Source: Bacteroidia bacterium
GTDB lineage: Bacteria; Bacteroidota; Bacteroidia; NS11-12g; UBA955
Assembly: GCA_044360435.1 (NCBI GenBank)
Contig: JBIKKI010000003.1
Location: 1-48,775, forward strand
Reading direction: 5' to 3'
Length of the DNA: 48,775 bases
Both the position numbers and the translations under genes were made by a program. This document shows positions 20,161 to 38,974 of the stretch, in pieces (positions within the stretch are counted from its first letter, which is position 1; each line of letters opens with the position of its first letter). The notes beneath the pieces are model-generated. The model made no database searches. It saw nothing but the letters and a program-made list of their open reading frames with translations, and was not told where the DNA came from.

Positions 20161-21135
20161 ATGAACAAAATACAGGAGTTACCCGACATACAGGAATGGT
20201 TGCGCTCGGGCATTCCGTTGAACAGGAACGCGGCACAAACCATTTCAGATGTGCTTGACATCAGCCTGGATGCGGCTTACCGTCGGCTGCGAGGCAAGTC
20301 CCCATTCACGCTTCAGGAAGGTATGCAACTGGCAAAAACACTTGGCCTGAGCCTCGATATACTCGCAGCATCCGGGCAAGGGCACATTGTATTTGAAGTG
20401 GAAGCAGCGACAGACAGCCACGACAGCCGAACTTCTAATCTGGAACGCTTGCTGCAAATGGGCAAAGCGCTGGCCGACGACCCGGAAGCGCGGATTGTGC
20501 ATACCCAGGAAGACATCATTCCATTTCGCATGTATGGCTATCCTCAATTGCGTGCTTTCAAGCATTACCACTGGGAAAGGCTATACACTTCAGATACCGG
20601 TACCCGTTTCAATCCTGCCGCAGAGGATAAGCAGCGTGACGAAGTCGCTGCCGGAATTTACCGACTTTACATGCGTATTCCTTCGCTCGAAGTGTGGTCA
20701 GAATACAGCCTTGACAGTACCCTTCGCCAAATTCGATACGATATGGAAACCGGTCACTTTACCCATGCTGCAGATGCGCTCGCTGTAACGGCAGACATGC
20801 ATCGGCTGCTTGACGACCTGCAGGAACAGGCAAGAACAGGCCACAAACACCGGGAAAACGATTTTCAGCTTTTTTGGAGCGAAATCGCCGTTTTCAACGG
20901 CAGTCTGATGGTTTATGCCCGAGGTTATCAACGCGTGTATACAGGTCACCACACCATGCACTACCTCAGCACCTCCAACCAGGATTATTGCCGGCAAACT
21001 ACGGCATGGAACGACCTTTTACTGCGCCGCAGCCTCAACCTTACAGGTTATGCTGAAAAGCTGCGTTACCGTTTTTTCAGCCTGCTCCGACAGCGGGTAA
21101 AAGCACTGGAACAATGGCTGCACGAGCAGGGATAA
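20161..21135 (+). CDS. Putative transcriptional regulator, N-terminal XRE-like HTH plus ~250-aa C-terminal domain
   Basis: ISDVLDISLDAAYRRLRGKSPFTLQEGMQLAKTLGLSLD is an XRE-type HTH. TAGTTTTG promoter element at 20149-20156. Confidence 0.75.
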   Translation: MNKIQELPDIQEWLRSGIPLNRNAAQTISDVLDISLDAAYRRLRGKSPFTLQEGMQLAKTLGLSLDILAASGQGHIVFEVEAATDSHDSRTSNLERLLQMGKALADDPEARIVHTQEDIIPFRMYGYPQLRAFKHYHWERLYTSDTGTRFNPAAEDKQRDEVAAGIYRLYMRIPSLEVWSEYSLDSTLRQIRYDMETGHFTHAADALAVTADMHRLLDDLQEQARTGHKHRENDFQLFWSEIAVFNGSLMVYARGYQRVYTGHHTMHYLSTSNQDYCRQTTAWNDLLLRRSLNLTGYAEKLRYRFFSLLRQRVKALEQWLHEQG

Positions 21136-22478: not shown

Positions 22479-22964
22479 TCACCAGGCCTGAATTTGTTTC
22501 TTTTCAGCTTCCGTCAGCCCTGTCACCTGCAGCATGAAGCCTTTGATGGTTTGGAATAACGCATGTGCACGCATCGGCGGATGCGCCATGATAAAGGCTT
22601 TATCTTCGGAAAGATGCGTAGAAATCCCTACCATGGAAGGCGTATTGTATTCCACGCTATACCGCAAAAAACGAATTTCCGTATGCTGCGGAAACTTCAC
22701 TACCGCGGCGTTCAGCTGGGCCGAACCAGATTTGACATGAACCACTTTATTGTACGGATTATAGCTGAATTTCGCTTTCAAAGCCAGTGCCGAACCGTAA
22801 TAGGCCTGCATTACCGCATCAGCCCCAGCCTGACCTTTGGTCAGTTTTTCCAGAGCCAGCGTTTCGGTTTCGCTGTACACCGCTTTCAGATAGGTTTGGC
22901 GCACCAAGGCGTAATCTGCAGTGCTTACCAAAAGCGTCAAGGAAGCAAGAAACAGAGACTTCAT
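22479..22964 (-). CDS. Exported helical hypothetical protein (TPR-like)
   Basis: Signal peptide. AYYGSALALKAK..NPYNK and P.HTEIRFLRYSVE resemble a conserved Bacteroidota family. Confidence 0.65.
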   Translation of the reverse strand: MKSLFLASLTLLVSTADYALVRQTYLKAVYSETETLALEKLTKGQAGADAVMQAYYGSALALKAKFSYNPYNKVVHVKSGSAQLNAAVVKFPQHTEIRFLRYSVEYNTPSMVGISTHLSEDKAFIMAHPPMRAHALFQTIKGFMLQVTGLTEAEKKQIQAW

Positions 22965-24033: not shown

Positions 24034-25164
24034 TTAATCCTGCCACTCCGCAACAAAGATATTGGTAGCGCGGGTGCCCCCATTGTTCCTGTTGCTGCTG
24101 AATACCAGATACTTCCCATCGGGCGAAAACATCGGAAAAGCATTGAAGATGCTCTCGTAGGTAATCTGCTCCAGCCCGGTTCCATCGGTATTGATCATGT
24201 ACAACTGAAAATCGTAACCACGCTCGCTTTTATGGTTGCTGCTGAACATGATTTTGTTTCCGGATGGATGATAGTACGGAGCCCAGTTGGCCTTGCCCAA
24301 TTGGGTAATCTGTTTCAGGTCGCTGCCGTCAATGTTCACGGTGTACAGTTCCATACGTGTTGGTTCAACCTGCCCTTTGGCCAACAACTCTTTGTATCGC
24401 GTTACTTCTGCCTCTGTTTTGGGTCTGCTGGAACGAAACACCAGCTTCTTTCCATCGGGTGAAAAGAACGCACCACCGTCATATCCAAGTCCGTTGGTAA
24501 GTTGCTTCAGGTTTTGACCCGAAGTGTCCATAATCCAAAGTTCAAGGTCGCCGCTGCGGTCGCTGGTGAACACGATGTGTTTCCCATCAGGTGAAACCGT
24601 GGCTTCTGCGTCATAGCCGGGCTCTTTGGTCAGTTGTCGGGTGATGTTCCCTTTCAAATTAGCGATGTAAATGTCATAACTTGAATAAACCGGCCAGACA
24701 TAAGCACCGGTGCTTCCCGGCGCCGGAGGACAGCTGTGCCCACCTTCATGCGTGCTGGCATACAAAATGTGTTTTCCATCGGGCATGAAATAGGAACAGG
24801 TGGTTCGACCCAGTCCGGTGCTTACCATTTCGGGCTGGAAGCTGGAATCAGTAAGCAATTGCCAGGGCGCAGAAAAAATGCGGTCACAAGGAATCCCTTT
24901 AGCGGCATCGGCGCGCTGAAAAGTAAGTTGCTTCCCATCCGGACTCCAGTATGCTTCGGCATTATCGCCGCCGTAAGACAGCTGGTAAAGCGCCTTGAAA
25001 TGACGTTCCCCGGGAGCAGGTGTTCTTTTCGCATACGCTGGAATCCTTGTATTCAAATCCTGAACAGCAGGTGCTGAAAAGTCAGGTGCCTGTGCTGATT
25101 TCCTGGAAAAGCAGGAAGCAAACAACAGCATCAACAATGGAAATACGATTGCTCGGGTCTTCAT
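24034..25164 (-). CDS. TolB-like PD40 beta-propeller lipoprotein
   Basis: Lipobox LLFAS-C. Repeats WSPDGK, FMPDGK, VSPDGK, FSPDGK, YHPSG, FSPDGK. Start at 25164. Confidence 0.85.
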   Translation of the reverse strand: MKTRAIVFPLLMLLFASCFSRKSAQAPDFSAPAVQDLNTRIPAYAKRTPAPGERHFKALYQLSYGGDNAEAYWSPDGKQLTFQRADAAKGIPCDRIFSAPWQLLTDSSFQPEMVSTGLGRTTCSYFMPDGKHILYASTHEGGHSCPPAPGSTGAYVWPVYSSYDIYIANLKGNITRQLTKEPGYDAEATVSPDGKHIVFTSDRSGDLELWIMDTSGQNLKQLTNGLGYDGGAFFSPDGKKLVFRSSRPKTEAEVTRYKELLAKGQVEPTRMELYTVNIDGSDLKQITQLGKANWAPYYHPSGNKIMFSSNHKSERGYDFQLYMINTDGTGLEQITYESIFNAFPMFSPDGKYLVFSSNRNNGGTRATNIFVAEWQD

Positions 25165-25183
25165 TTCGAGCGCGAAATTGCAG

Positions 25184-26176
25184 TTAAAGTTGCTCGAATT
25201 CAAATTTCGGGTATCCTCTTTGACCCAAATCATTGTAATAGTCTGTAAACCTCAATTTGAACAGCGCATTTCCGTTGGTACGGATTACGAAAATACGGTT
25301 ATAGCTCACCGTATATTTCCCTGACAGGCGATCAAACAGCTTCCAGTCGTAGCCTATGGCGTCCAACTTGTTGCTGAAATTCAGTGACAATGCCAGGGTG
25401 CGGTCCACTTTTTCGAACGGCACATTGCCCAAAACCTCTGCGCAGCTGGTTTGCCAAGGATTCAGCAAACAACCAACTGCTACATAGTCAAAGGGCTTTC
25501 CGGTTCCTGTTTCGATGATGCTGGTTTTATACTTCCGGAATACCAGATCCCAGGCATCCTGATTTAAAGGCTCTGCCTGCAGCGTATCTTTTTTGACGAA
25601 ACTGAAATAGACATAGTTCTTCCCCTGCATGCGCGGAATCCTTGCTTTCCGGAAGTTGCTGTCCTTCAATCCGCCGTAAAGCAGTTGGTAAGCGCTATTA
25701 TCGGCCCCTTCTACCTTAAACTTTACGTAGCGTTCGACAGCCGGCTGATTCATTCCGCGATCGAGGATATACCAATAGCCAAAACTATTTACTCCATCCG
25801 GAGACCATCTACCAATGCCGGTTTCATCGGGATTACCACTGGGATGATCATACCTCCAGCCTTCAAGCGGTACATTGACGTTTTTTGGAATCGCACCAGT
25901 ATCACCCTGATAAACCCATGCATCGTTGCCGTTGTTCAAAATGATTTCCCAACGTGCATTTGCACATGCAAAACCTAAATCCCAAAGAGAACCTGTGGTT
26001 TGAACATCTGTATTGGAACCAAGGTGCACAAAAACATCACGGTCTCTATCCTCGCCCAGCTCCAACATTTTCGTTTGCACGCCTTCCAATTTCGTGGGCG
26101 GGGGATACAAGGCCTCTTCCGGTTCACATGAACTAAGGAACATCAGCAGGAGCCAAAAGACCAAGGTGGAGCGCAT
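25184..26176 (-). CDS. HmuY-family lipoprotein (two HmuY-like modules)
   Basis: Lipobox FLSS-C. WDLGF and WDLVF motifs, YVKFKV and LFKLRFTDYY..G.RGYPKFEF C-terminus, all typical of HmuY-like proteins. Confidence 0.8.
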   Translation of the reverse strand: MRSTLVFWLLLMFLSSCEPEEALYPPPTKLEGVQTKMLELGEDRDRDVFVHLGSNTDVQTTGSLWDLGFACANARWEIILNNGNDAWVYQGDTGAIPKNVNVPLEGWRYDHPSGNPDETGIGRWSPDGVNSFGYWYILDRGMNQPAVERYVKFKVEGADNSAYQLLYGGLKDSNFRKARIPRMQGKNYVYFSFVKKDTLQAEPLNQDAWDLVFRKYKTSIIETGTGKPFDYVAVGCLLNPWQTSCAEVLGNVPFEKVDRTLALSLNFSNKLDAIGYDWKLFDRLSGKYTVSYNRIFVIRTNGNALFKLRFTDYYNDLGQRGYPKFEFEQL

Positions 26177-26188
26177 GTGTTGCAAATA

Positions 26189-28456
26189 TCAGGGTTCTTG
26201 GGGTTTATCTTGAATCTGCAAGATGAGTCGTATGAAGAATTGCCTGCCTGGTGAAATCAGCTGATCGCCATTATTCGTGGCATGAATGCCGCCGGAAATC
26301 CTGTTGGATTGAATGCTGGTAACACCCAATGCATTTCTGCACCCGGCGCTCAGACGAATTTGTTGTTGCCGGAAATGTCTGGAAACAATGATGTCGCTGA
26401 TCCAAAAATCCTGAATGGTGTAGGCTGTTCTGTCTGCATTGTAGCCTCTGGTCTTCCCGCTGTATTTCTGGAAGAGATGCACGCGCCAGGGGGAATGTTC
26501 AGGAGTCCATCCCAGATTCAACCTAAACTGTGTGAAATAGAAGAAGCGTTTATCCCCGAGTCCGGTGCCATCCAGATCATCCCTTAAACCGATGGTTGAC
26601 CAGCCGGCAGTGAGGTTAAACGCCCTGTGTATGTAGCTGGCGTTCATACTCATCCCCTGAGTATTGTAGCTGCCTACGTTGATGTATGTATATAAATTAG
26701 TCAAGGGGTCAACCAGGGCCAAACTGATTCGATTCCTGATGTAGTTCTGGAATATGGCATAGTCGAATCTGAAGGCCTGTTTCTGGGGCAGTGGCCTGCG
26801 GTAATCCAGACCCACACTGTAATTTAGAGACTGCTCGGCCTGGAGATTCTCATTACCGCGAACGTTGTGTTGGTTATCTACGAAGAGGAGATTCAGCTCT
26901 TTGAGTCCTGGCGCGCGGTAACCCACGGCCAAAGAGCCTCTGAACAACATCTGCTTCGACAAATCCCATTTCCATTGCAACGAAGGAATAACGGGCGCCA
27001 GTTTCAATCCCGACAGAAGACCCTGAGCGACCAATGGCTTGCCAAACCGATCATTGTAAATGAACCTGATGCCCGGCCTCAGCAGCAAACGCTGCACCGG
27101 ACGGTAATCTACAACACCAAACAACGCCACATCGTGAATTCCGGGTGAACCGGCGGGAATATTATCGCCTCTGCCCCGTTCAATATTCACTTCATACCCG
27201 GCCATCCACTGAACTTGCGACCAGGGTCGGGACTGTGCAGCAAAACCACGCGACATCCACTGTGTGAAGCGACTTTGGTCGCCCAGAAAGGCTGTTAAAT
27301 CGCGTTCAGTTCCGTTTACCAGATCACGTTTGAACACGTCCTTGTTCCGGCCAAAGAATTGCCAGGACTGAAGCAGCTCCAGGCGAACCTGTCGCTTCAG
27401 CGGAATGCTAATCTGCCATTGCTGATTCAGGCGGTTCGTCAGATAAATGTGGTTGAAACCGCTGATACCCGTATTGCTGTATTCTGCAGCCTGCCTGTCG
27501 GTAAGCCGTTCCTGGAACTTTTGAACCTGAAATCGATGCATCCAGGTTCCTGTTTTCAGGAAAAGATTGGATTCGCCAAAAGTTCTGGTTTTGGGTTTCC
27601 AGTCGAAAGGGCGGTCCTTCTTATTGAAATCAATACCGCCAAAGAAGTACCTGCCACCATTGATACTCAATGCCAACTTTTTGTTGAAGCGGTGGTTGAT
27701 GGTAACATCCTGATTGAAATTGCGCAGGCCATCAGCGTACACGTTTGCATCAGCCTGCGTTCCTTTTTGTTCCGCCTGCCGCGTGATGATGTTGATGACA
27801 CCACCTAAAGCATCCGAGCCAAATACTGAAGACATAGGCCCTTCAATAATTTCCACCCGGGCCACATTGCTCAGGTTGATTTGAGACACATCCACATTTC
27901 CGTTCAGACGCCCAATCACGGGAACGCCATTGACCATCACCTTGATATTCTGCCCGGAGATTCCCTGCATGATGGCGCTTGTGCCCATTACGGCATCCTG
28001 CCCCATGCTGAAATTCACTTCGTTGGCCAGCAGTTCAGACAGATTCTGCGCAGCCAGCTGTTCCATTTGCTGCCTTCCAATGACCCTGATATTGTTGGCC
28101 GAACGCGATACCGCATTTGGGGAAGCCATAGCGGTAACTACTACCGGATCAAGCCTGGCATCCAAAGGCATCATGCTCATTTTTAGGGTATCCTGACCTG
28201 CGCTGAAGGATTGCTTTTCATCGCGGTAACCCGGCATGAAACAGCGCACATCCACCAGAAACTTAGGCTCTATCAGCACGACGCCCTGTGCATTGGTACG
28301 TTGCTGGAATTCAGCTCCATCGGTTGCCCGGGCGAACACAACGGCACCTTCCAAAGACTGTCCGTTCAGGCGGTCCAACACCTGAAGTACTTGCTGCGCC
28401 CGTATGGGTGAAGCAAGCAACAGAACAAGTAAGCAAAGGACCGCGCCGCGCAACAC
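26189..28456 (-). CDS. TonB-dependent receptor, probably for heme (HmuR-like)
   Basis: TonB box LDPVVVTA. Plug motif RVEIIEGPMSSVFGSDALGGVINIIT. YRAP..H..NENL resembles the FRAP/His/NPNL loop of heme receptors. GTG start. Confidence 0.88.
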   Translation of the reverse strand: MLRGAVLCLLVLLLASPIRAQQVLQVLDRLNGQSLEGAVVFARATDGAEFQQRTNAQGVVLIEPKFLVDVRCFMPGYRDEKQSFSAGQDTLKMSMMPLDARLDPVVVTAMASPNAVSRSANNIRVIGRQQMEQLAAQNLSELLANEVNFSMGQDAVMGTSAIMQGISGQNIKVMVNGVPVIGRLNGNVDVSQINLSNVARVEIIEGPMSSVFGSDALGGVINIITRQAEQKGTQADANVYADGLRNFNQDVTINHRFNKKLALSINGGRYFFGGIDFNKKDRPFDWKPKTRTFGESNLFLKTGTWMHRFQVQKFQERLTDRQAAEYSNTGISGFNHIYLTNRLNQQWQISIPLKRQVRLELLQSWQFFGRNKDVFKRDLVNGTERDLTAFLGDQSRFTQWMSRGFAAQSRPWSQVQWMAGYEVNIERGRGDNIPAGSPGIHDVALFGVVDYRPVQRLLLRPGIRFIYNDRFGKPLVAQGLLSGLKLAPVIPSLQWKWDLSKQMLFRGSLAVGYRAPGLKELNLLFVDNQHNVRGNENLQAEQSLNYSVGLDYRRPLPQKQAFRFDYAIFQNYIRNRISLALVDPLTNLYTYINVGSYNTQGMSMNASYIHRAFNLTAGWSTIGLRDDLDGTGLGDKRFFYFTQFRLNLGWTPEHSPWRVHLFQKYSGKTRGYNADRTAYTIQDFWISDIIVSRHFRQQQIRLSAGCRNALGVTSIQSNRISGGIHATNNGDQLISPGRQFFIRLILQIQDKPQEP

Positions 28457-28466
28457 GCCTGGGGAA

Positions 28467-29756
28467 TTACGGAATAATTACCGGCAAAGACCCTTTCTTG
28501 CCATCGGCAATCAGGGTAACGAAATAGGTTCCGGCAGACAAGCCTGCAGTAGGCAACACATGTTGTTGCAGTCCTATCATCATTCTTTGATCGCTAAACA
28601 ATACCCTTCCGGAGGCATCTGTCAGTTGAATCAGGGCTTCATGTGCGGCTGAATAATCGGTAGCCAAAACAATGTTCTTGCCGGAGATCGCAGGATTAGG
28701 GAACACATTTAAGCGCAACGCATCACCAAAACTGGGCACGCTGGCAAGATTCGTCTGCTGTTTGTGCATCACAATTTTTCCGGTGGCGCTGCCGTCAAAA
28801 CGAGAGAAATAAAGCAGCCAATACTGTCCATCGGTGGCTTTGATCAGATAGCTGAGGCTATCCCTGCACACGAATTTATTGGTAGTTCTGCTGAAGGATT
28901 TCCAGTTGGAGCCAATTCCGGTCAAATCATCGGCAATCTGCGTTTTCCAATCTGCAGGACTGATGGCATTTCTATCTACACCAACAATGGCCGCAACCAT
29001 CACACCGGAATTACTTTCCACACCCATCACCGGATAAGGAATGGTTCTGCCGCTCATAGGATCAAAAGTTGGCGCGAAATATTGGGTGAACACCAAATCC
29101 CATGCAGCAGCAGGTTCGCGCAAAGGCTGGTCTTTTTTCTGCAGATGGAGGTATTTAAACTTACGGTTGCCTGCTGTGGCACTCAACACATTCATGGTGG
29201 TATCACCGGAGCCATCCAGTGCGGCAATGCGAATTTGCAGGTTTCCCTTGTCGTCTTGTTTTACAGGATAGAACTTGCGAAAAAGCTGGTTGGGCGTTCC
29301 GGCATTCAAAATCAGGAGGTACAGAGAATCACCAACTACCTCGTGCGTTGTGGTGTTGTACACACCCCAACTAAAATCCCACATACCAGGACCTTTCTGC
29401 TGATTGAAGGCACCCAGTTCCCTTTTCTTCAGGTCGTTGAATACCATACGCCATTGTTGCCAACCTGTGGTATCGAATGAATTCCATGCATCAAGCGCCC
29501 CTTTAGGATAAGGCACCACCCGCACACCTGCTACGTGGTTTGCCCTGATACAGTTGTCCATTTTCACCTGAGTATGAGCCAATTCCCAGTCGGTCAAGGG
29601 AGAAGTTCCCTGAATGCCGGATCCAAGTGCGTAAAACACTTCATTACGGTACCCTGGCCCCATTTGCACAGAATCAGTGACCCACTGCGCTGAAAGCGAA
29701 AAAGATTGGAATGCCGCGAAGCATACCGCCAGATATGTTGTTTTTCTTGAGAACAT
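28467..29756 (-). CDS. HmuY-like protein with T9SS type A sorting domain
   Basis: Sec signal ending LSA-Q. MGPGY.NEVFY, WELAH, WDLVFTQY, IGSNWK.F and YWLLYFSRFDG parallel the HmuY lipoprotein. CTD VFPNPA..LTDASGR..LSAGTYFV. Confidence 0.78.
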   Translation of the reverse strand: MFSRKTTYLAVCFAAFQSFSLSAQWVTDSVQMGPGYRNEVFYALGSGIQGTSPLTDWELAHTQVKMDNCIRANHVAGVRVVPYPKGALDAWNSFDTTGWQQWRMVFNDLKKRELGAFNQQKGPGMWDFSWGVYNTTTHEVVGDSLYLLILNAGTPNQLFRKFYPVKQDDKGNLQIRIAALDGSGDTTMNVLSATAGNRKFKYLHLQKKDQPLREPAAAWDLVFTQYFAPTFDPMSGRTIPYPVMGVESNSGVMVAAIVGVDRNAISPADWKTQIADDLTGIGSNWKSFSRTTNKFVCRDSLSYLIKATDGQYWLLYFSRFDGSATGKIVMHKQQTNLASVPSFGDALRLNVFPNPAISGKNIVLATDYSAAHEALIQLTDASGRVLFSDQRMMIGLQQHVLPTAGLSAGTYFVTLIADGKKGSLPVIIP

Positions 29757-29782
29757 CGTTGTGCTTTTTAAAATTTGGGCGA

Positions 29783-29801
29783 ATTTAGAATCCTTCTACA
29801 G
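29783..29801. promoter_or_regulatory. Fur-box-like palindrome
   Basis: ATTTAGAATCCTTCTACAG has a TAGAA-N3-TTCTA dyad. It lies ~27 nt upstream of the hmuY-like operon and overlaps a TAAATTCG -7-like element on the minus strand. Confidence 0.6.
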
Positions 29802-29929: not shown

Positions 29930-31801
29930 ATGACAAAAATCAGCATAGATCTGAAGAAAGCAGAAATCGTTGCCAGTGAAACCATCATTGGAATTGACCT
30001 GGGAACTACGAACAGCCTGGTAGCGATTTGCGCAGGAGATGCACGCAATCCGGTTTGCTTGGAACAAAACGGTGCCGTGATTGTGCCGTCTGTTGTGCAT
30101 TTGGCTCCGGATGGCAACATTCTGGTGGGCAACGATGCCCGTGCCATGCTGGTTCAGGATCCGGCCAATACCATTTACAGCGTAAAGCGTTTGTTGGGCC
30201 GTTCCTACAAGGATGTACGTGAACATGACCGATATTTCGGTTACCGCATTGTGGAAGATGAAGCGCAGGAACAAATCAACGTGTTTGCGCATGGTAAATA
30301 TTACAGTCCGATAGAACTCAGCGCGATGATCCTTAAAGAGATTCGGCAACGTGCTGAAGCAGCCATTGGCAGCAAAGTCCAGAAAGCGGTGATTACCGTT
30401 CCTGCCTATTTCGACGATACGCAGCGCCAGGCCACACGGGAAGCCGGGAAGCTTGCCGGCCTTGATGTGCTGCGCATCCTGAACGAGCCAACGGCGGCAA
30501 GTCTGGCCTACGGCCTTGGACAATCCACAGCACAAAAGAGAACCATTGCTGTATATGATTTCGGCGGAGGAACTTTTGACGTGTCGATTTTGCAGCTGGA
30601 AGCCGGCGTGTTTGAGGTGCTGGCCACACGCGGCGATACCTGGCTGGGCGGCGATGATATCGATAAAGCCATTGTAGACTTCTGGCTGAATAACAACCCG
30701 GCGCTGAATGCACATACCGGGCAACGCGAGGTCATGCAACTCTTGAGGCTGATGGCTGAAGAAGCGAAGATTGTATTGTCAGAAGGAACGGTACAACTGT
30801 ATCAAAGGGAAGACACTATTGCTGCAGTTGATTTGGTGCTTAAGCTCAGCGCGGCTGAGTTTCGGGAATTGTGTGCGCCACTGCTCCAAAAAAACATAGA
30901 CATTGCCCAGCTGGCCCTGGAAGATGCCAAACTCAAACCCACGGAAATCCAGGAACTCGTTCTGGTGGGCGGATCTACACGCCTGAACCTGGTAAAAGAA
31001 AAAGTTCGCGAACATTTCAAAGGTGTGCACATCAACGACAGCCTGAATCCTGATGAAGTAGTAGCCTTGGGTGCCGCCGTAGAAGCAGACATCCTGGCCG
31101 GAAACCGAAGGGACATCTTACTGTTGGATGTAACGCCGTTGAGCCTGGGTATAGAAACGCTCGGCGGACTGATGGACGTTTTGGTTCCACGCAACAGCCG
31201 CATTCCATGCAGCGCGGCAAGACAATACACCACATCTGTAGACGGTCAGGTGAACATGGAAATTTCTGTGTATCAGGGTGAACGGGAACTGTGCGCGCAA
31301 AACCGAAAACTCGCCTCTTTTCAACTGAAAGGAATTCCGGCCATGCCCGCAGGATTGCCTAAAGTTGAAGTACGCTTTCTGATTGATGCCGATGGAATCC
31401 TCAGGGTATCAGCCAAGGAACTGAGAAGCGGCATCAGCCAGCAAATTGAAGTACAATATCAGAAAGACCTGAGCGACAAATCCGTTGAAGACATGCTGAT
31501 GGACAGCCTTGCCAACGCGCAAACAGATGTTGCCACGCGATTGCTCGTGGAAGCGCAAACGGAAGGAAAACAGCTGGTGTACACGGCAAAACGTTTCATA
31601 GAAAAGAACCAAACCCTGCTTTCTGCGGCCGAACAAAGCCATACCCTATCCCTGTGTGATGCCGTGGAATCCGTTTGTTCCGGAAATGATAAAGACGCAA
31701 TTCTTGCGGCCATTGAACGTTTAAACGACTATACCCGCCCCTTTGCGGAACGGCTCATGGATCAGGCCGTCGGGGCTGCCCTAAAAGGAAAAACCGTCTA
31801 A
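29930..31801 (+). CDS. hscA: Hsp70 family chaperone, Fe-S assembly HscA-like
   Basis: IGIDLGTTNS, AVITVPAYFDD, YDFGGGTFD, LVGGSTR, LLLDVTPLSLG. PAYFDD, LKGIPAMPAG and the C-terminal PFAERLMDQAV..ALKG favour HscA over DnaK. Confidence 0.8.
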   Translation: MTKISIDLKKAEIVASETIIGIDLGTTNSLVAICAGDARNPVCLEQNGAVIVPSVVHLAPDGNILVGNDARAMLVQDPANTIYSVKRLLGRSYKDVREHDRYFGYRIVEDEAQEQINVFAHGKYYSPIELSAMILKEIRQRAEAAIGSKVQKAVITVPAYFDDTQRQATREAGKLAGLDVLRILNEPTAASLAYGLGQSTAQKRTIAVYDFGGGTFDVSILQLEAGVFEVLATRGDTWLGGDDIDKAIVDFWLNNNPALNAHTGQREVMQLLRLMAEEAKIVLSEGTVQLYQREDTIAAVDLVLKLSAAEFRELCAPLLQKNIDIAQLALEDAKLKPTEIQELVLVGGSTRLNLVKEKVREHFKGVHINDSLNPDEVVALGAAVEADILAGNRRDILLLDVTPLSLGIETLGGLMDVLVPRNSRIPCSAARQYTTSVDGQVNMEISVYQGERELCAQNRKLASFQLKGIPAMPAGLPKVEVRFLIDADGILRVSAKELRSGISQQIEVQYQKDLSDKSVEDMLMDSLANAQTDVATRLLVEAQTEGKQLVYTAKRFIEKNQTLLSAAEQSHTLSLCDAVESVCSGNDKDAILAAIERLNDYTRPFAERLMDQAVGAALKGKTV

Positions 31802-34510: not shown

Positions 34511-34591
34511 GCCTGAAATACTGCTTTTCACTAAATTGGCGTTTTGGGGTACGGCATTTGCAGTGTACCCTTCACGGAAATGATTCACCTG

Positions 34592-37500
34592 ATGTTCAGA
34601 GTAATACTCTTCACCTTATTTGGCATTGCACTTTGTTCGAAAGCAAGCGCTCAGATCAAAAGTTTTAGTCCGGATCCAGCGATTTACATCAAGGAATTCG
34701 AACAATTCATCAGGAGCGCTGAAGACAAGGCTCTGGATGCAGACCTTGAAATCTTCCTCAGCAACTGGAAAGGTGCCAAGTTTGATGCTGTGCAGCAGAA
34801 GAACATATCCAAACTGTGTAACAGTATGATTCAGCGCGGGCTGAACATCAAGCCCTACTTCAGCTTGGTACTCAGTTCCTTGAATGCCTTTGCAAGCCGC
34901 AAACTTCCCGCCAAAAATTTGCAGCAATGGCAACAAATTGCAGACAATCTGCTGGGCAGAAACCCCGCTGAATACCTCAGCTTCCTGCAATTGGCAAACA
35001 ACCTGTTCCGCGACAATACCATTTTCCGCGATCCTGCAAAACGCTGGTACGCGAAGTCCATGGATTTCGACATCCTGTTTACCACGCAAATTGAAGTTCG
35101 TTTTAAAAAAACCGACCTGATATGCCGCACCTTGTTCGACAGTCTGATCATCTCCAACACGGAAGGAACCTACATACCCGGCAAGAACCTGTGGAAAGGA
35201 AATGGCGGTCTGACCGGCTGGGAACGAACCATGCCCGGAGAACAGATGAAAGTACAGCTGTTCCGCTATGAAACAGATGTGCTGACCAGCGGCTATCTTG
35301 CAGATTCTGCCTGGCTTTCCTATCCAAAATTCTTTTCCAAACAAGTACTTGGACGTTTTGAAGACCGTGCTTCCTATGCCAGTAATCCGGATGAAGTAAA
35401 AACCAGTTCATACCCTAAATTCAGCACCTTCCGAAGCGATCTGGAAATTAGAAACCTGCTTGGACCAAGGGCCACCTATACCGGCGGATTGACCATCAAC
35501 GGAGCAGAAATCACAACAGTGAATGCCCAGGGAAAGGAATCGGTCATCACCATTTATTTCAAGGGGAAGAAAAAGATCATTGCCAAATCGGCCTCGTTCA
35601 AAATAGCAGATGGAACCGCTTCGAGCCTTGAAAGTTCATTCCTGCTCATTGCCGATAGCGCCAAGGGGAATATCTACCACCAAAAAGTGCAGTTTAACTT
35701 CAATTTTAAGGAAGGCAAACTGGTGGTAACCAAAGGTGTTACCGGATTGATGCGTGCACCCTTCAGCGATGATTTCCACAAGCTTGATATCGATGTGCAG
35801 CAGCTTCGTTGGAACATTGAAGAGCCGTTTATTGATTTCGATATGGTCAATAAAAACCAGGATGCCAAGATTGAGTCGGCCGGTTTCTTCAAAGAATTTC
35901 GATACGAAAAACTCCAGGGTGCCTTGCGCTACAACCCGCTGGAGAAAATGACGGACTATTACAGAACCAATCTTTCCAAAGACCGGCGCATCAAGTTCGC
36001 CGTGAAAGATTATGCCACATACCTGAAAAATTCAGTGGAACATATTGAGGCGCAGCTCATTGACCTGGCGGATGGAGGTTACATTGTGTATAACCCGTTT
36101 GAAGACTCTATCACCATCCGGGCTAAACTGTTCAACTACGTTCAAAGCCATCATAAACTGCGCGACTACGACGTCATTCGATTCTCTTCGCTGATTGCGG
36201 CCAGACCCAATGGAACCTTGAACCTGCTTACCAACGAACTCAAGCTTGAAGGCGTGCAGCGCTTCTACTTCAGCGATTCTCAAAATGTGGTTGCCTTGCC
36301 AACCGAACAAATCATCACCGTTCTGGAAAACCGTCGCCTGAAGTTCAGCGGAATGATTCGCGCGGGCAGGTTTGACTTCTTCGGAAAGAATTTCGAATTC
36401 GACTACGATAAGTTCCAGATTCTGTACACCAACATTGACAGCATGAGGCTGTATTTCCCCGACAGCAGCGGGAAAGCCATTGTTCCCATTAAATCTGTGC
36501 TGCGCAATATTTACGGAACGCTGTATATCGACAAGCCCAACAACAAGTCGGGGTTAAAGAGCTTTCCGGAATACCCCATCTTCAGGAGCGACAAGGGCAG
36601 CGTTATCACGTATGAAAAATCGTATATCCACGGCGGCGCCTATAAACCGGATAAATTTTACTTCGAAGTAGATCCATTTACCATCGACAGTTTGGACAAT
36701 TTTACTATTTCCGGACTGGCATTCGACGGCACATTCAGGTCGGACGGCATTTTTCCTGATTTCCGAGAGAAAGCCCGAATTCAAAAAGATTATTCTCTTG
36801 GATTCATCTCACATACCCCACCTGGTGGTTTCCCCATGTACCGTGGTAAAGGAAAAGGAGATATGGCCATCTCCCTCAGCGAACAAGGTTTATACGGAAG
36901 TGGAACCATCGAATACAGCGGAAGCAAAACCAAATCGAACAGTTTTCTGCTGCTGCCAGATAAAATGAAGGCACAAGTGGAAAGTTATGAACTTCCGCAA
37001 AGCGCGAAATATCCTGAGGTTTATGCAGCCAATGCCGGCGCAGAATGGAAGCCAGGGGAAGATAAATTCACCATCACCAACGGTGAAGCGCCCATTCGCA
37101 TGTTTAAAATGGGCTACAGTTTTTATGGAAGCATAACCCAAAGCCCGGCGCAGTTGAAAGGCGACGGTGTACTGAAATGGTCTGAAGCGAATTTCTCCAG
37201 CAAGGATATGACCTTCGGTTCGAACAAAACCTCCGCGCAGGAAGCAGCACTGCAAATTTTCTCACTCGACAGCACCCGCGTTGCCTTCAGAACAGATCAT
37301 GTTCGGGGAACACTTGACTTTGATAAGGGCGCAGGTGATTTCACCAACAACATTCCAGGCAGCCCTACCCTGTTCCCCTGGAATAAATATGCCACCAACA
37401 TGAGTGATTACCGCTGGGACATCCGCAACAAGGCCATCGAAGTGAAAACAGGCGCTTCCATGGCCGGAATCACGCCCATGTTTGTGAGCACACACCCCAA

Positions 37501-38974
37501 TCAGGATTCACTTCGGTTTGAAGCCAAAAAAGGAATTTATGATTTGCGCAATGAACTGCTCCGTGTAGAAGGAATTCCGCACATCGACATCGCAGATTCC
37601 CGGATGGTGCTGAAGAATGGTAAAGTCACCGTGCGCAAAGACGCCGATATGGACCCTGTAGACAGTGCAAGAATCACGGCTAACAGGAAAGACAAGTTTC
37701 ATGAAATTTACCGCAGTGATGCTAAAATCTACGGCCGCAATAAGATGCGCGCCAAAGGATATTATGTGTACGTGAACAAGGTCAACTACAAGCAGGAACT
37801 GTTCCTTGACAGCATACTGGTGAACAGGGAAAAGCTCGTAGAGGCCTGGGGAAAGGTTGAAGAAGCCAAGAACTTCACCCTGGATACCAAAATTGCCTAT
37901 AAAGGGTTGATTAAAGTGCTGAGTAATGAGAAATATCCTTTGTTCACCGGATACTTCAAACCCCTGCATACCTTTAAGAATGTATTGCCTTCGGCTTGGA
38001 TTCGCTACAGCGATTATGTAGATCCCAAAAAGGTGATTCTGAAAGCAGACGACCCACGAGATAAAGACAATAAACGGCAATACGTTGGACTTTACATCGC
38101 CAACGATTCCAGCCACGTTTATCCACTTTTCTACAGCTGGAAGAAAAGGTACAGCGATCCTGAAATTACCGGCGATACCGGAATCCTCTACTATGATGAC
38201 TTGCAATCCAGCTTCTTCGCAGGCAACAAGGATAAGTTGTTGCAAGGTGGCCTGAAGGGGAATTTCATCCAGTTCAATGAAAAGACACATGCCATCCACG
38301 CTGAAGGGCGCATGGATTTCGGATTTGACAATTCCACCATCAAATGCATCAGCGCAGGTACCGCAGACCTGCCGGAAGGCGACAGCAGTTTCAATTTCCA
38401 ACTGGCGATGTTCCTGGATTTCCCACTGCCTAAATCCTTCAATGAACGACTTTATACGCTTTTGACTGAAGAAGGGGCCGGCAAAGGCAGCTTCAGCAAT
38501 AATGACCTGTTTGTAAAGAAAGCCGTAGGAGAATTGATTTCTGACGACAAAACCGCACGTACCGTGATGAAAAACATGGAACGCACCGGCATTTTGGAAG
38601 GTCGTGATGAAGCTGCATGGAAGTTTTGCTTTACCAAGGCCGATTTCCGCTGGAACAGCAAACAAAGGGGCATGGCCTGCACCGAAGAATTGTCACTGGC
38701 CAACTTTGACGGCAAAACAGTAAACCGCGACTTTGAAGCGAAAATGCTGGTTGAACACCGGCGCAGCGGTGAAAACATGTTCCTTTATATGGAAATCTCT
38801 GCAGGAAACTGGATATACATCAACACCCAGCGAAATGTGACTTATGTATGGACCAGCGATGAACTGCTTAACCAAAGCATCATCAACGAAGGACCGAAAG
38901 TGAGCACCGATACCTATACACTGCGCACAGCAGCGCCATCAATGGTAGATCGGTTTTTAAGGAAGATGGAGTGA
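34592..38974 (+). CDS. Large (~1460 aa) exported beta-rich hypothetical protein
   Basis: Long uninterrupted ORF. Signal peptide MFRVILF..KASA-Q. Rich in alternating aromatic/Gly strands. No T9SS CTD recognised. Start could be 34580. Confidence 0.85.
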   Translation: MFRVILFTLFGIALCSKASAQIKSFSPDPAIYIKEFEQFIRSAEDKALDADLEIFLSNWKGAKFDAVQQKNISKLCNSMIQRGLNIKPYFSLVLSSLNAFASRKLPAKNLQQWQQIADNLLGRNPAEYLSFLQLANNLFRDNTIFRDPAKRWYAKSMDFDILFTTQIEVRFKKTDLICRTLFDSLIISNTEGTYIPGKNLWKGNGGLTGWERTMPGEQMKVQLFRYETDVLTSGYLADSAWLSYPKFFSKQVLGRFEDRASYASNPDEVKTSSYPKFSTFRSDLEIRNLLGPRATYTGGLTINGAEITTVNAQGKESVITIYFKGKKKIIAKSASFKIADGTASSLESSFLLIADSAKGNIYHQKVQFNFNFKEGKLVVTKGVTGLMRAPFSDDFHKLDIDVQQLRWNIEEPFIDFDMVNKNQDAKIESAGFFKEFRYEKLQGALRYNPLEKMTDYYRTNLSKDRRIKFAVKDYATYLKNSVEHIEAQLIDLADGGYIVYNPFEDSITIRAKLFNYVQSHHKLRDYDVIRFSSLIAARPNGTLNLLTNELKLEGVQRFYFSDSQNVVALPTEQIITVLENRRLKFSGMIRAGRFDFFGKNFEFDYDKFQILYTNIDSMRLYFPDSSGKAIVPIKSVLRNIYGTLYIDKPNNKSGLKSFPEYPIFRSDKGSVITYEKSYIHGGAYKPDKFYFEVDPFTIDSLDNFTISGLAFDGTFRSDGIFPDFREKARIQKDYSLGFISHTPPGGFPMYRGKGKGDMAISLSEQGLYGSGTIEYSGSKTKSNSFLLLPDKMKAQVESYELPQSAKYPEVYAANAGAEWKPGEDKFTITNGEAPIRMFKMGYSFYGSITQSPAQLKGDGVLKWSEANFSSKDMTFGSNKTSAQEAALQIFSLDSTRVAFRTDHVRGTLDFDKGAGDFTNNIPGSPTLFPWNKYATNMSDYRWDIRNKAIEVKTGASMAGITPMFVSTHPNQDSLRFEAKKGIYDLRNELLRVEGIPHIDIADSRMVLKNGKVTVRKDADMDPVDSARITANRKDKFHEIYRSDAKIYGRNKMRAKGYYVYVNKVNYKQELFLDSILVNREKLVEAWGKVEEAKNFTLDTKIAYKGLIKVLSNEKYPLFTGYFKPLHTFKNVLPSAWIRYSDYVDPKKVILKADDPRDKDNKRQYVGLYIANDSSHVYPLFYSWKKRYSDPEITGDTGILYYDDLQSSFFAGNKDKLLQGGLKGNFIQFNEKTHAIHAEGRMDFGFDNSTIKCISAGTADLPEGDSSFNFQLAMFLDFPLPKSFNERLYTLLTEEGAGKGSFSNNDLFVKKAVGELISDDKTARTVMKNMERTGILEGRDEAAWKFCFTKADFRWNSKQRGMACTEELSLANFDGKTVNRDFEAKMLVEHRRSGENMFLYMEISAGNWIYINTQRNVTYVWTSDELLNQSIINEGPKVSTDTYTLRTAAPSMVDRFLRKME

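Follow-up and report, generated by a model that had tools for sequence, protein, structure and literature searches.

A probable heme-import operon with two twin-repeat HmuY-fold proteins in the Bacteroidia order NS11-12g

What does a TonB-dependent receptor carry when its gene stands between those of two related binding proteins, and must the cargo pass through both on its way in? We address this question for three adjacent genes, here called p1, p2 and p3, in a 48,775-nucleotide stretch of the genome of a Bacteroidia bacterium (order NS11-12g; GenBank assembly GCA_044360435.1, contig JBIKKI010000003.1, positions 1 to 48,775; hereafter the window). An original prediction, made from the DNA letters, read the trio as a relay in which an HmuY-like hemophore exported through type IX secretion (T9SS) passes heme to an anchored HmuY-like lipoprotein and from there to the receptor. 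We conclude that the trio is probably a heme-import operon of the HmuY–HmuR kind whose two binders are twin-repeat paralogues. On the minus strand, the three genes are as tightly linked as the prediction held, with gaps of 10 nt between p1 and p2 and 12 nt between p2 and p3:

28467..29756, minus strand: p1, a predicted exported twin-repeat HmuY-fold protein of 429 amino acids (open reading frame (ORF); T9SS-tail matches; AlphaFold (AF2) pLDDT 93.7)
28482..28706, minus strand: T9SS type A C-terminal sorting domain (CTD) of p1, residues 351–425 (TIGR04183, PF18962)
26189..28456, minus strand: p2, a TonB-dependent receptor of 755 amino acids with a GTG start (PF07715 plug and PF00593 barrel)
26843..26920, minus strand: p2 motif Y513-R-A-P ... 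H530 ... N535-E-N-L (from sequence positions)
25184..26176, minus strand: p3, a lipoprotein paralogue of p1 with a modelled twin-repeat fold, 330 amino acids from ATG, Cys17 (PF14064; AF2 pLDDT 93.2); an alternative TTG frame gives 333 amino acids

A conserved trio

We found p1 in 58 of the 61 genomes of the order (50 of them at least 90% complete; the genome of this stretch is 86.7% complete). The synteny survey that had been proposed as a check bears out the arrangement: among 40 order loci, fetched from 39 of the 57 order genomes besides this one that have p1 and chosen for long contigs, the receptor gene lies next to p1 in all 40 and the lipoprotein gene follows the receptor in 39, the exception falling at a contig edge. 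One order genome, G013, carries two operon copies, with an internal stop in one copy of p1, and at L034:5226-7651 the receptor gene appears as two overlapping ORFs (547 and 261 amino acids), reflecting a frameshift or an assembly error.

Across a phylum sample of 401 genomes, p1 occurs in 21, this genome included, a probable undercount from a search with the tailed profile that scored just four candidates per genome. In 19 phylum loci the receptor lies on the same strand within 4.5 kb in 14, is divergent in 3 and is lacking in 2, and the lipoprotein falls within the locus in 9; in the 3 divergent loci it sits behind the receptor. A search for related loci with p1 alone gave five close relatives, all titled as metagenome-assembled genomes of uncultured Bacteroidota. 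Identical proteins are recorded under Chryseobacterium, Flavobacterium, Edaphocola and Rurimicrobium, and identical exported proteins are mostly named just 'T9SS type A sorting domain-containing protein'.

Two HmuY repeats in each binder

From its N terminus, p1 consists approximately of a signal peptide (residues 1–23), repeat 1 (24–182), repeat 2 (184–337) and a type A T9SS tail (347–429). The Sec signal was judged from the sequence and the AF2 model, with the cleavage site inferred from sequence, and the tail scores 31.1 bits against TIGR04183 (cut-off 23) and a marginal 27.9 bits against PF18962 (cut-off 27). The T9SS translocon gene SprA was found in the genome. With a Sec signal, a type A CTD and a T9SS at hand, p1 is a predicted T9SS type A cargo, as originally proposed. 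The second binder, p3, matches PF14064 with 48.1 bits (cut-off 27) over residues 189–330 of the 333-residue frame and is the sole PF14064 match in the genome. Its lipoprotein Cys17 is invariant in the family (59/59), where p1 carries a T9SS tail rather than a lipoprotein anchor.

Profiles of the p1 and p3 families align with each other at a probability of 100 (E 2e-48, 283 columns). Within p1, repeat 1 aligns with repeat 2 in hhalign (probability 93.9, E 1.5e-7); the internal match in p3 is weaker (probability 76.8, E 2e-5). Both proteins are paralogues built of two HmuY repeats, which upholds the two modules first seen in the lipoprotein and corrects the account of p1, and neither is the single domain of about 190 residues that marks the HmuY family. 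An unrooted FastTree phylogeny of 155 cores places 77 exported and 78 lipoprotein forms on opposite sides of a split with support 1.0, with 9 p1-type rows assigned to the exported class by locus coordinates.

Structure prediction supports an HmuY fold for both binders, because VIA comparisons rank HmuY-family structures first. The top five matches of the p1 model are all of this family (Z 12.0–13.6, rmsd 2.8–4.2, 126–160 residues aligned), including 3h8t (Z 13.6, rmsd 3.2, 134 aligned), and so are the six best matches of p3, which aligns with 3h8t over model range 30–330 (Z 14.8, rmsd 2.7, 138 aligned). Foldseek found HmuY structures for p3 at rmsd 15–21, and searches of the Protein Data Bank (PDB) with single sequences gave nothing significant for either protein. 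The p3 profile reaches 8b6a at E 7e-10 and 3h8t at E 2e-6, and 8b6a (BfrB) is the best sequence match among HmuY structures for both profiles.

The twin-repeat unit also occurs in other settings. Four proteins of 752–990 amino acids (P0068, P0069, P0070 and P0071) match it in two or three stretches; in the three inspected, a unit of about 315 residues occurs twice ahead of one T9SS tail, so that each chain has four HmuY repeats. Some lipoproteins are longer, at about 465–475 amino acids, with about 110 extra N-terminal residues ahead of the unit (L137, L139, L148, L157-L160, L167-L171, L173 and L174), and in a genus sample the p1 gene directly follows this long form in 9 of 16 full-length p1 loci.

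Predicted strand exchange between the repeats

The single-domain HmuY structures that VIA matched do not fall on one repeat, and instead stretch across p1 22–337 and p3 30–330 with about 135 residues aligned. Covariation in 286 sequences gives the same picture. Strand 1 pairs with the last strand of repeat 2 (S29–K327, z 9.1, versus 3.3 with the repeat-1 counterpart of that strand), strand 2 pairs with strand 4 of repeat 2 (L44–L221, z 9.5, versus 3.7 unswapped), and strand 2 of repeat 2 pairs with strand 4 of repeat 1 (E58–H204, z 11.4, versus 2.6 unswapped). Y36 and F320 covary at z 13, and the best unswapped pairings reach z 2.2–3.7. The swapped pattern recurs in a rerun with 304 rows that the folding alignment did not contain, although a profile made from that alignment was used to align them. 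Covariation and match ranges together indicate a predicted layout in which the two repeats exchange their first three strands to form two lobes. Lobe A would combine strands 1–3 of repeat 1 with the rest of repeat 2 (p1 approximately 24–54 and 218–337), and lobe B would span approximately 56–213.

A candidate tyrosine site in lobe A

The tyrosines that line the porphyrin ring in HmuY proteins (BfrB Y54, Y89 and Y165) are kept in lobe A only. K215/Y216 and Y288 of p3 align with BfrB R88/Y89 and Y165, and Y89A and Y165A variants of BfrB are reported to bind less heme and less protoporphyrin IX (PPIX; PMC12106395). In the p3 family Y216 is invariant (59/59), Y288 is kept in 55/59 and position 44 is Tyr in 40/59 (Arg in this genome); in the p1 family Y36 is kept in 141/150, Y226 in 143/150, and position 295 is Tyr, Trp or Phe in 147/150.

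The original prediction pointed to one loop in each binder and suggested Tyr/Met in place of bis-His ligation. Both loops are present (p1 233–245; p3 229–238 in the 333-residue frame), and each contains an extra conserved tyrosine, Y241 in p1 (143/150) and Y231 in p3 (59/59), on an insertion absent from repeat 1. The position equivalent to HmuY H166 (numbered as in the PMC9331221 supplement) is Arg in both, R290 in p1 (family Met 50/150) and R283 in p3. The alignments thus favour Tyr in place of bis-His, with p1 Y241 and p3 Y231 in lobe A the likely iron ligands. Methionine ligation fell away, as the Met residues of the p1 loop are poorly conserved (M234 5/150, M244 26/150). By alignment, lobe B is diverged: p1 has a conserved H138 (135/150), aligned with F295 of lobe A, and p3 is without any conserved His, which leaves His138 a feature of p1 only.

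The receptor and the predicted need for heme

The receptor bears the motif expected of heme receptors, FRAP/YRAP and NxxL with a His between, and Y513RAP, H530 and N535ENL were confirmed as first read. The receptor-family consensus is FRAP...H..GN..L. Both H530 and H725 are invariant in 51/51 aligned orthologues, and the 22-residue spacing from YRAP to NxxL equals that of Porphyromonas gingivalis HmuR (Y420 to N442; HmuR numbering from PMC12094164).

A COX1-family (heme-copper) oxidase is encoded in 59 of the 61 order genomes, yet heme-synthesis genes are nearly absent: ALAD was found in 2, ferrochelatase in 2 and porphobilinogen deaminase in 1. Only G008 (C110) and G013 (C309 and C358) carry any of them. 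In G008 the genes for ferrochelatase, ALAD and porphobilinogen deaminase sit together, within 7 kb, on a single contig, suggesting either that the cluster was regained or that binning went wrong. HemS and CobN/HmuS (PF02514) were each found in 0/61 order genomes, in searches that left aside heme oxygenase (PF01126) and other heme-splitting enzymes; a control search with PF02514 was positive in B. thetaiotaomicron. With PF02514 at 0/61, the order lacks the hmuYRSTUV type of operon, in which hmuS accompanies hmuTUV. Because neither the synthesis genes nor HemS and HmuS were found in the order as a rule, the simplest reading of the gene content is that its members are heme auxotrophs, which would most likely salvage intact heme as a cofactor.

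Outside the order, HemS stands in 6 of the 19 phylum loci (4 by Pfam, 2 by cluster), several of which also have ATP-binding cassette (ABC) iron-chelate genes. These hemS/ABC neighbours, the invariant His530 and the heme-synthesis genes not found in the order together make heme the likely cargo, as originally proposed.

Points against heme import

Several findings weigh against a heme-import operon. Among the binders, p1 has no PF14064 match at E≤0.01, so that the proposed profile check held for p3 (PF14064) and for the tail of p1 (TIGR04183) and not for the fold of p1; 18 of 55 p1 homologues do carry the PF14064 label, and the HmuY fold of p1 is assigned from profiles and models instead. Foldseek, given the whole p1 model, returned no HmuY structure among its best 50 PDB rows, a miss that the strand-swapped layout would explain. 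There is no conserved His or Met at the canonical axial positions (HmuY H134/H166 type) or elsewhere in lobe A, and some accepted HmuY members, such as BfrB, are likewise described as lacking an axial His/Met pair (PMC12106395). Certain HmuY proteins are reported to bind neither heme nor PPIX (PMC12106395). This genome also departs from its families at p1 Q225 and F295 and at p3 R44, where relatives mostly have R/K, Y/W and Y.

The receptor adds further doubts. No His occurs in p2 residues 118–220, and the plug His of HmuR (His95) is therefore missing; p2 scores under the heme-receptor cut-offs (TIGR01785 104 versus 316.85, TIGR01786 85.5 versus 323.75) and passes no other receptor-family cut-off among 25 of 28 families shown; and its best PDB matches are CirA and BtuB. 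A search of the genome for an HmuT-like binding protein found none, which leaves the inner-membrane step for heme unexplained, and the assemblies compared differ in how complete they are. Heme makers carry the operon too, namely G008, G013 and the 25 of 36 other p1-carrying genomes in which the ALAD search was positive (0 of the 9 outside the class), and it hence does not mark auxotrophy; in heme-making relatives these genes stand beside hemS and Fur-like boxes and probably supply iron. Finally, deletion of hmuY in Flavobacterium columnare is reported to give no growth or virulence phenotype (PMC9618737).

Relay or parallel binders

If heme is the cargo, p1 would cross the inner membrane by Sec, leave through the T9SS and be either released or re-anchored at the surface, catching heme at a distance or on the cell. 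Lipid-anchored at the surface, p3 would hold heme beside the receptor. In both, lobe A would bind heme with its porphyrin-ring residues and Y241 or Y231, and heme from p1 or p3 would pass to His530 of the receptor for TonB-driven import; in this order it would then be kept intact as a cofactor of respiratory enzymes. The receptor and the lipoprotein look like the core of the system, and p1 like an accessory scavenger.

That p1 normally hands its heme to p3 first is plausible, if somewhat short of an even chance. An obligatory three-step relay is unproven, since either binder can be missing: G056 (99% complete) and G059 (94%) have the receptor and the lipoprotein with no p1 found, and G386 and G390 have p1 beside the receptor with no lipoprotein paralogue found. 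All three order genomes without p1 keep the lipoprotein, two of them beside the receptor. We offer only tentatively the fullest account, in which the whole order has lost heme synthesis and lives via this one operon, and a T9SS-released, strand-swapped p1 with a Tyr-ligated site, perhaps with a second site at His138, passes heme to an anchored paralogue that caps the receptor.

The best-surviving alternative, to be held just as tentatively, keeps the cargo and drops the relay: p1 and p3 would work in parallel, each docking on the receptor, or a p1 re-anchored by the T9SS would be a second fixed binder or heme store. The four genomes with one binder apiece fit it, as does a 401-genome genus sample in which 136 genomes have a match, 16 have the full-length p1 type and 7 of those 16 have it standing alone with Fur-like boxes. 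Against it, the trio is adjacent and in order in 39/40 order loci, the binders form separate old subfamilies (support 1.0), suggesting distinct roles, and in Riemerella anatipestifer a hand-off from secreted to anchored protein has been proposed, RhuH to RhuA or RhuR (PMC11967795).

Other cargoes

Two further alternatives replace heme itself. In the first, an unlikely one, the binders carry a metal-free porphyrin or a chlorophyll-derived tetrapyrrole with no coordination of iron, as in Bacteroides fragilis BfrB. The missing axial His and Met and the rank of BfrB as best-matching HmuY structure for both profiles agree with this, and genes for CbiX-family chelatases lie inside or beside 2 of the 19 phylum loci (L100:9614-10591 and L102:7768-8739, the L100 protein with a lipoprotein-like N terminus). 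However, with ferrochelatase in 2/61 order genomes and no CbiX match here, PPIX could not be converted to heme by known means; the HemS neighbours act on iron-containing heme, and the receptor His is invariant.

A non-heme nutrient such as vitamin B12 or a siderophore, with the HmuY fold repurposed, is very unlikely: the best HMM and PDB matches of p2 are indeed B12 and colicin I/catecholate receptors, and the genome, which encodes methylmalonyl-CoA mutase and in which no ALAD was found, probably needs imported B12 too, but p2 scores 106 against a cut-off of 600 for the B12 model TIGR01779 (best over the plug and barrel start, residues 99–349), HemS neighbours occur in related loci, no Rfam family matches in the window or in six related loci, and a separate riboswitch-led B12 locus stands elsewhere in the genome.

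L191:2066-6483 (contig C161): probable B12 uptake locus of the genome, headed by a cobalamin riboswitch (106.6 bits), after which come ORFs for a TonB receptor, a binding-protein-like product and a permease-like product

Possible iron control

The original prediction had noted a TAGAA-N3-TTCTA palindrome ahead of the trio. It is present, within a longer site:

29783..29801, strand not assigned: Fur-box-like site, 15/19 bases as in the Riemerella Fur box, enclosing the palindrome at 29786-29798
29780..29787, minus strand: probable -7 promoter element of p1, TAAATTCG, which departs from the consensus TAnnTTTG at one position and overlaps the Fur-like site

This palindrome makes up the core of the Fur box of R. 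anatipestifer (sequence from PMC5609570). Palindromes of the 5-3-5 form as such occur in the window at chance level (68 observed, about 48 expected), and the TAGAA-N3-TTCTA core has only two occurrences in the 2.43-Mb genome. Fur-like sites of at least 15/19 number seven in the genome, all intergenic in an ORF test, and a fur gene was found. Three of the other sites precede genes that we take to be NfuA-like, IscU/IscS-like and SdhC-like. The site studied here lies 27 nt before p1 and 129 nt before a divergent Hsp70 gene, which shares it.

A Fur-like box occurs in just 5 of the 40 order loci (within 130 nt) and 7 of the 19 phylum loci, from which we judge that control by iron is no constant trait of the system; the iron regulation anticipated for the operon thus finds a Fur-type site at this locus and no general counterpart. 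Exact TAnnTTTG within 60 nt of the start occurs in 21/40 order loci. The box is present in 6/11 loci from ALAD-bearing genomes versus 6/48 without ALAD, an association with heme synthesis that is suggestive only, as kin are non-independent and in a few loci (for example L108 and L113) the wrong start codon was taken.

Other upstream elements were seen. Close to a contig start (G000:C18:224-309), two of this genome's best Fur-like sites, matching at 16 and 17 of 19 bases, are spaced 67 nt apart, where no ORF of at least 100 amino acids starts within 200 nt and there is no Rfam match at E≤0.1; the pair possibly heads a small iron-regulated RNA or a short gene. By eye, box-less loci (for example L044, L049-L052, L055, L066 and L068-L071) have other repeated words upstream of the p1 orthologues, TGTCA/TGACA repeats in family f1 and GGGTATTT repeats beside an AraC gene in family f2; these words are possibly sites of other regulators. 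In L114-L116 with L150-L152, a second, unrelated T9SS-tailed protein (260–272 amino acids) lies between the Fur-like box and p1, and the T9SS-tailed pair is divergent from a receptor–lipoprotein–ABC–hemS-like operon.

Neighbouring features of the window

Directly downstream of p3 lies a possible fourth gene of the operon, a homologue of which follows in 18/40 order loci:

24034..25233, minus strand: PD40/TolB-like beta-propeller gene, start likely near 25164 (PF07676 and TIGR02800, both below cut-off)

The divergent Hsp70 gene (PF00012; window 29930-31801, plus strand), which we take to be hscA, shares its intergenic region with p1. Of the 22 family-f1 loci fetched, 12 keep this arrangement, whereas in family f2 the divergent gene is often an AraC regulator. 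Near the operon are also a BetR-domain protein (PF08667; window 20161-21135, plus strand) and a secreted-looking protein of 161 amino acids with no Pfam match (window 22479-22964, minus strand). A 1,476-amino-acid ORF (window 34544-38974, plus strand) begins with a signal-like sequence and matches nothing in Pfam or NCBIfam. Three metatranscriptome runs from two studies hold 0.06–0.14 of the stretch, with near-identical short contigs spanning parts of p1, p2 and p3; the contigs also cover neighbouring genes at low depth and DNA carry-over is possible, and we draw no inference from them.

Discussion

The operon resembles P. gingivalis HmuY–HmuR and its relatives (Tfo, PinO, Bvu and BfrA/B/C) in its modelled HmuY fold, in a lipoprotein beside a TonB receptor, in a YRAP-His-NxxL loop of equal 22-residue spacing and in conserved pocket tyrosines. 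It differs from them in having two predicted strand-swapped repeats per chain in place of one domain of about 190 residues and an additional T9SS-tailed paralogue, in lacking a bis-His or bis-Met pair, a plug His and hmuS (0/61), and in occurring in aerobes with heme-copper oxidases.

A heme spectrum with a Soret band at 398 nm and further bands at 503, 530 and 623 nm, the HfpY type, fits Tyr ligation. HfpY itself, from Flavobacterium psychrophilum, binds heme 1:1 with Soret and further bands at these wavelengths, and the HfpR–HfpY system is, like the present one, a receptor with an HmuY-like protein in an aerobe, there iron-regulated, though no T9SS paralogue is described for it in the accessible text (PMC9331221). 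As a candidate twin-repeat member HfpY was rejected, because it aligns with single-domain HmuY proteins and has no second repeat in the part of the alignment covered (PMC9331221).

The statement that the architecture of p1 had not been characterised no longer stands. F. columnare HmuY (C6N29_01035) is annotated with the architecture of p1, HmuY_like plus Por_Secre_tail, and is reported to be T9SS-secreted and to have been deleted; it has no heme-binding test reported in the accessible text, and the paper's table lacks a receptor of neighbouring locus tag (PMC9618737). Flavobacteriaceae proteins of the p1 family mostly bear the same two labels, and no F. columnare name appears among 120 matches listed out of 450. 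The R. anatipestifer RhuH–RhuR–RhuA system likewise combines a secreted hemophore, a receptor and a hemin-binding protein at the surface, all behind a single Fur box, and a hand-off has been proposed for it (PMC11967795); three phylum loci have a similar divergent layout with p1 in the upstream arm. RhuH differs from p1 in a fold described as unlike known hemophores, in His96 and in leaving the cell in vesicles, with no mention of the T9SS in the accessible text (PMC11967795). Aquatic heme auxotrophs (acI and others) are comparable in physiology, as free-living bacteria that respire, make no heme of their own and depend on an external supply; the main text of that preprint has no word starting 'Bacteroid' or 'Hmu', and its supplements may list this order (bioRxiv 10.1101/2021.01.11.426183).

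A T9SS-tailed HmuY alone is not new. Apparently new in the literature searched are the predicted swapped twin-lobe design, the pair of paralogues around one receptor and the link to a predicted order-wide heme auxotrophy: the accessible texts, including PMC13595192, PMC12398890, PMC10986502 and PMC5561996, hold no account of a twin-repeat swapped fold, the trio operon or heme auxotrophy of this order, and subscription papers and preprint supplements may differ.

These results put a name to a large HmuY subfamily, whose p1 type comprises 1,061 clusters at 50% identity (E≤1e-30, clusters not individually checked) and whose exported members are mostly annotated by the T9SS tail only. The F. columnare hmuY deletion may have been silent because p1-like proteins are accessory to a receptor–lipoprotein core or redundant in heme makers. 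The swapped twin-lobe fold and the Tyr ligand are predictions that one purification could test. The operon is also tied to the heme auxotrophy predicted for a whole order of uncultured aerobes, a link that invites culturing with added hemin; if the prediction is true, nanomolar hemin would be a missing growth factor for bringing the order into culture.

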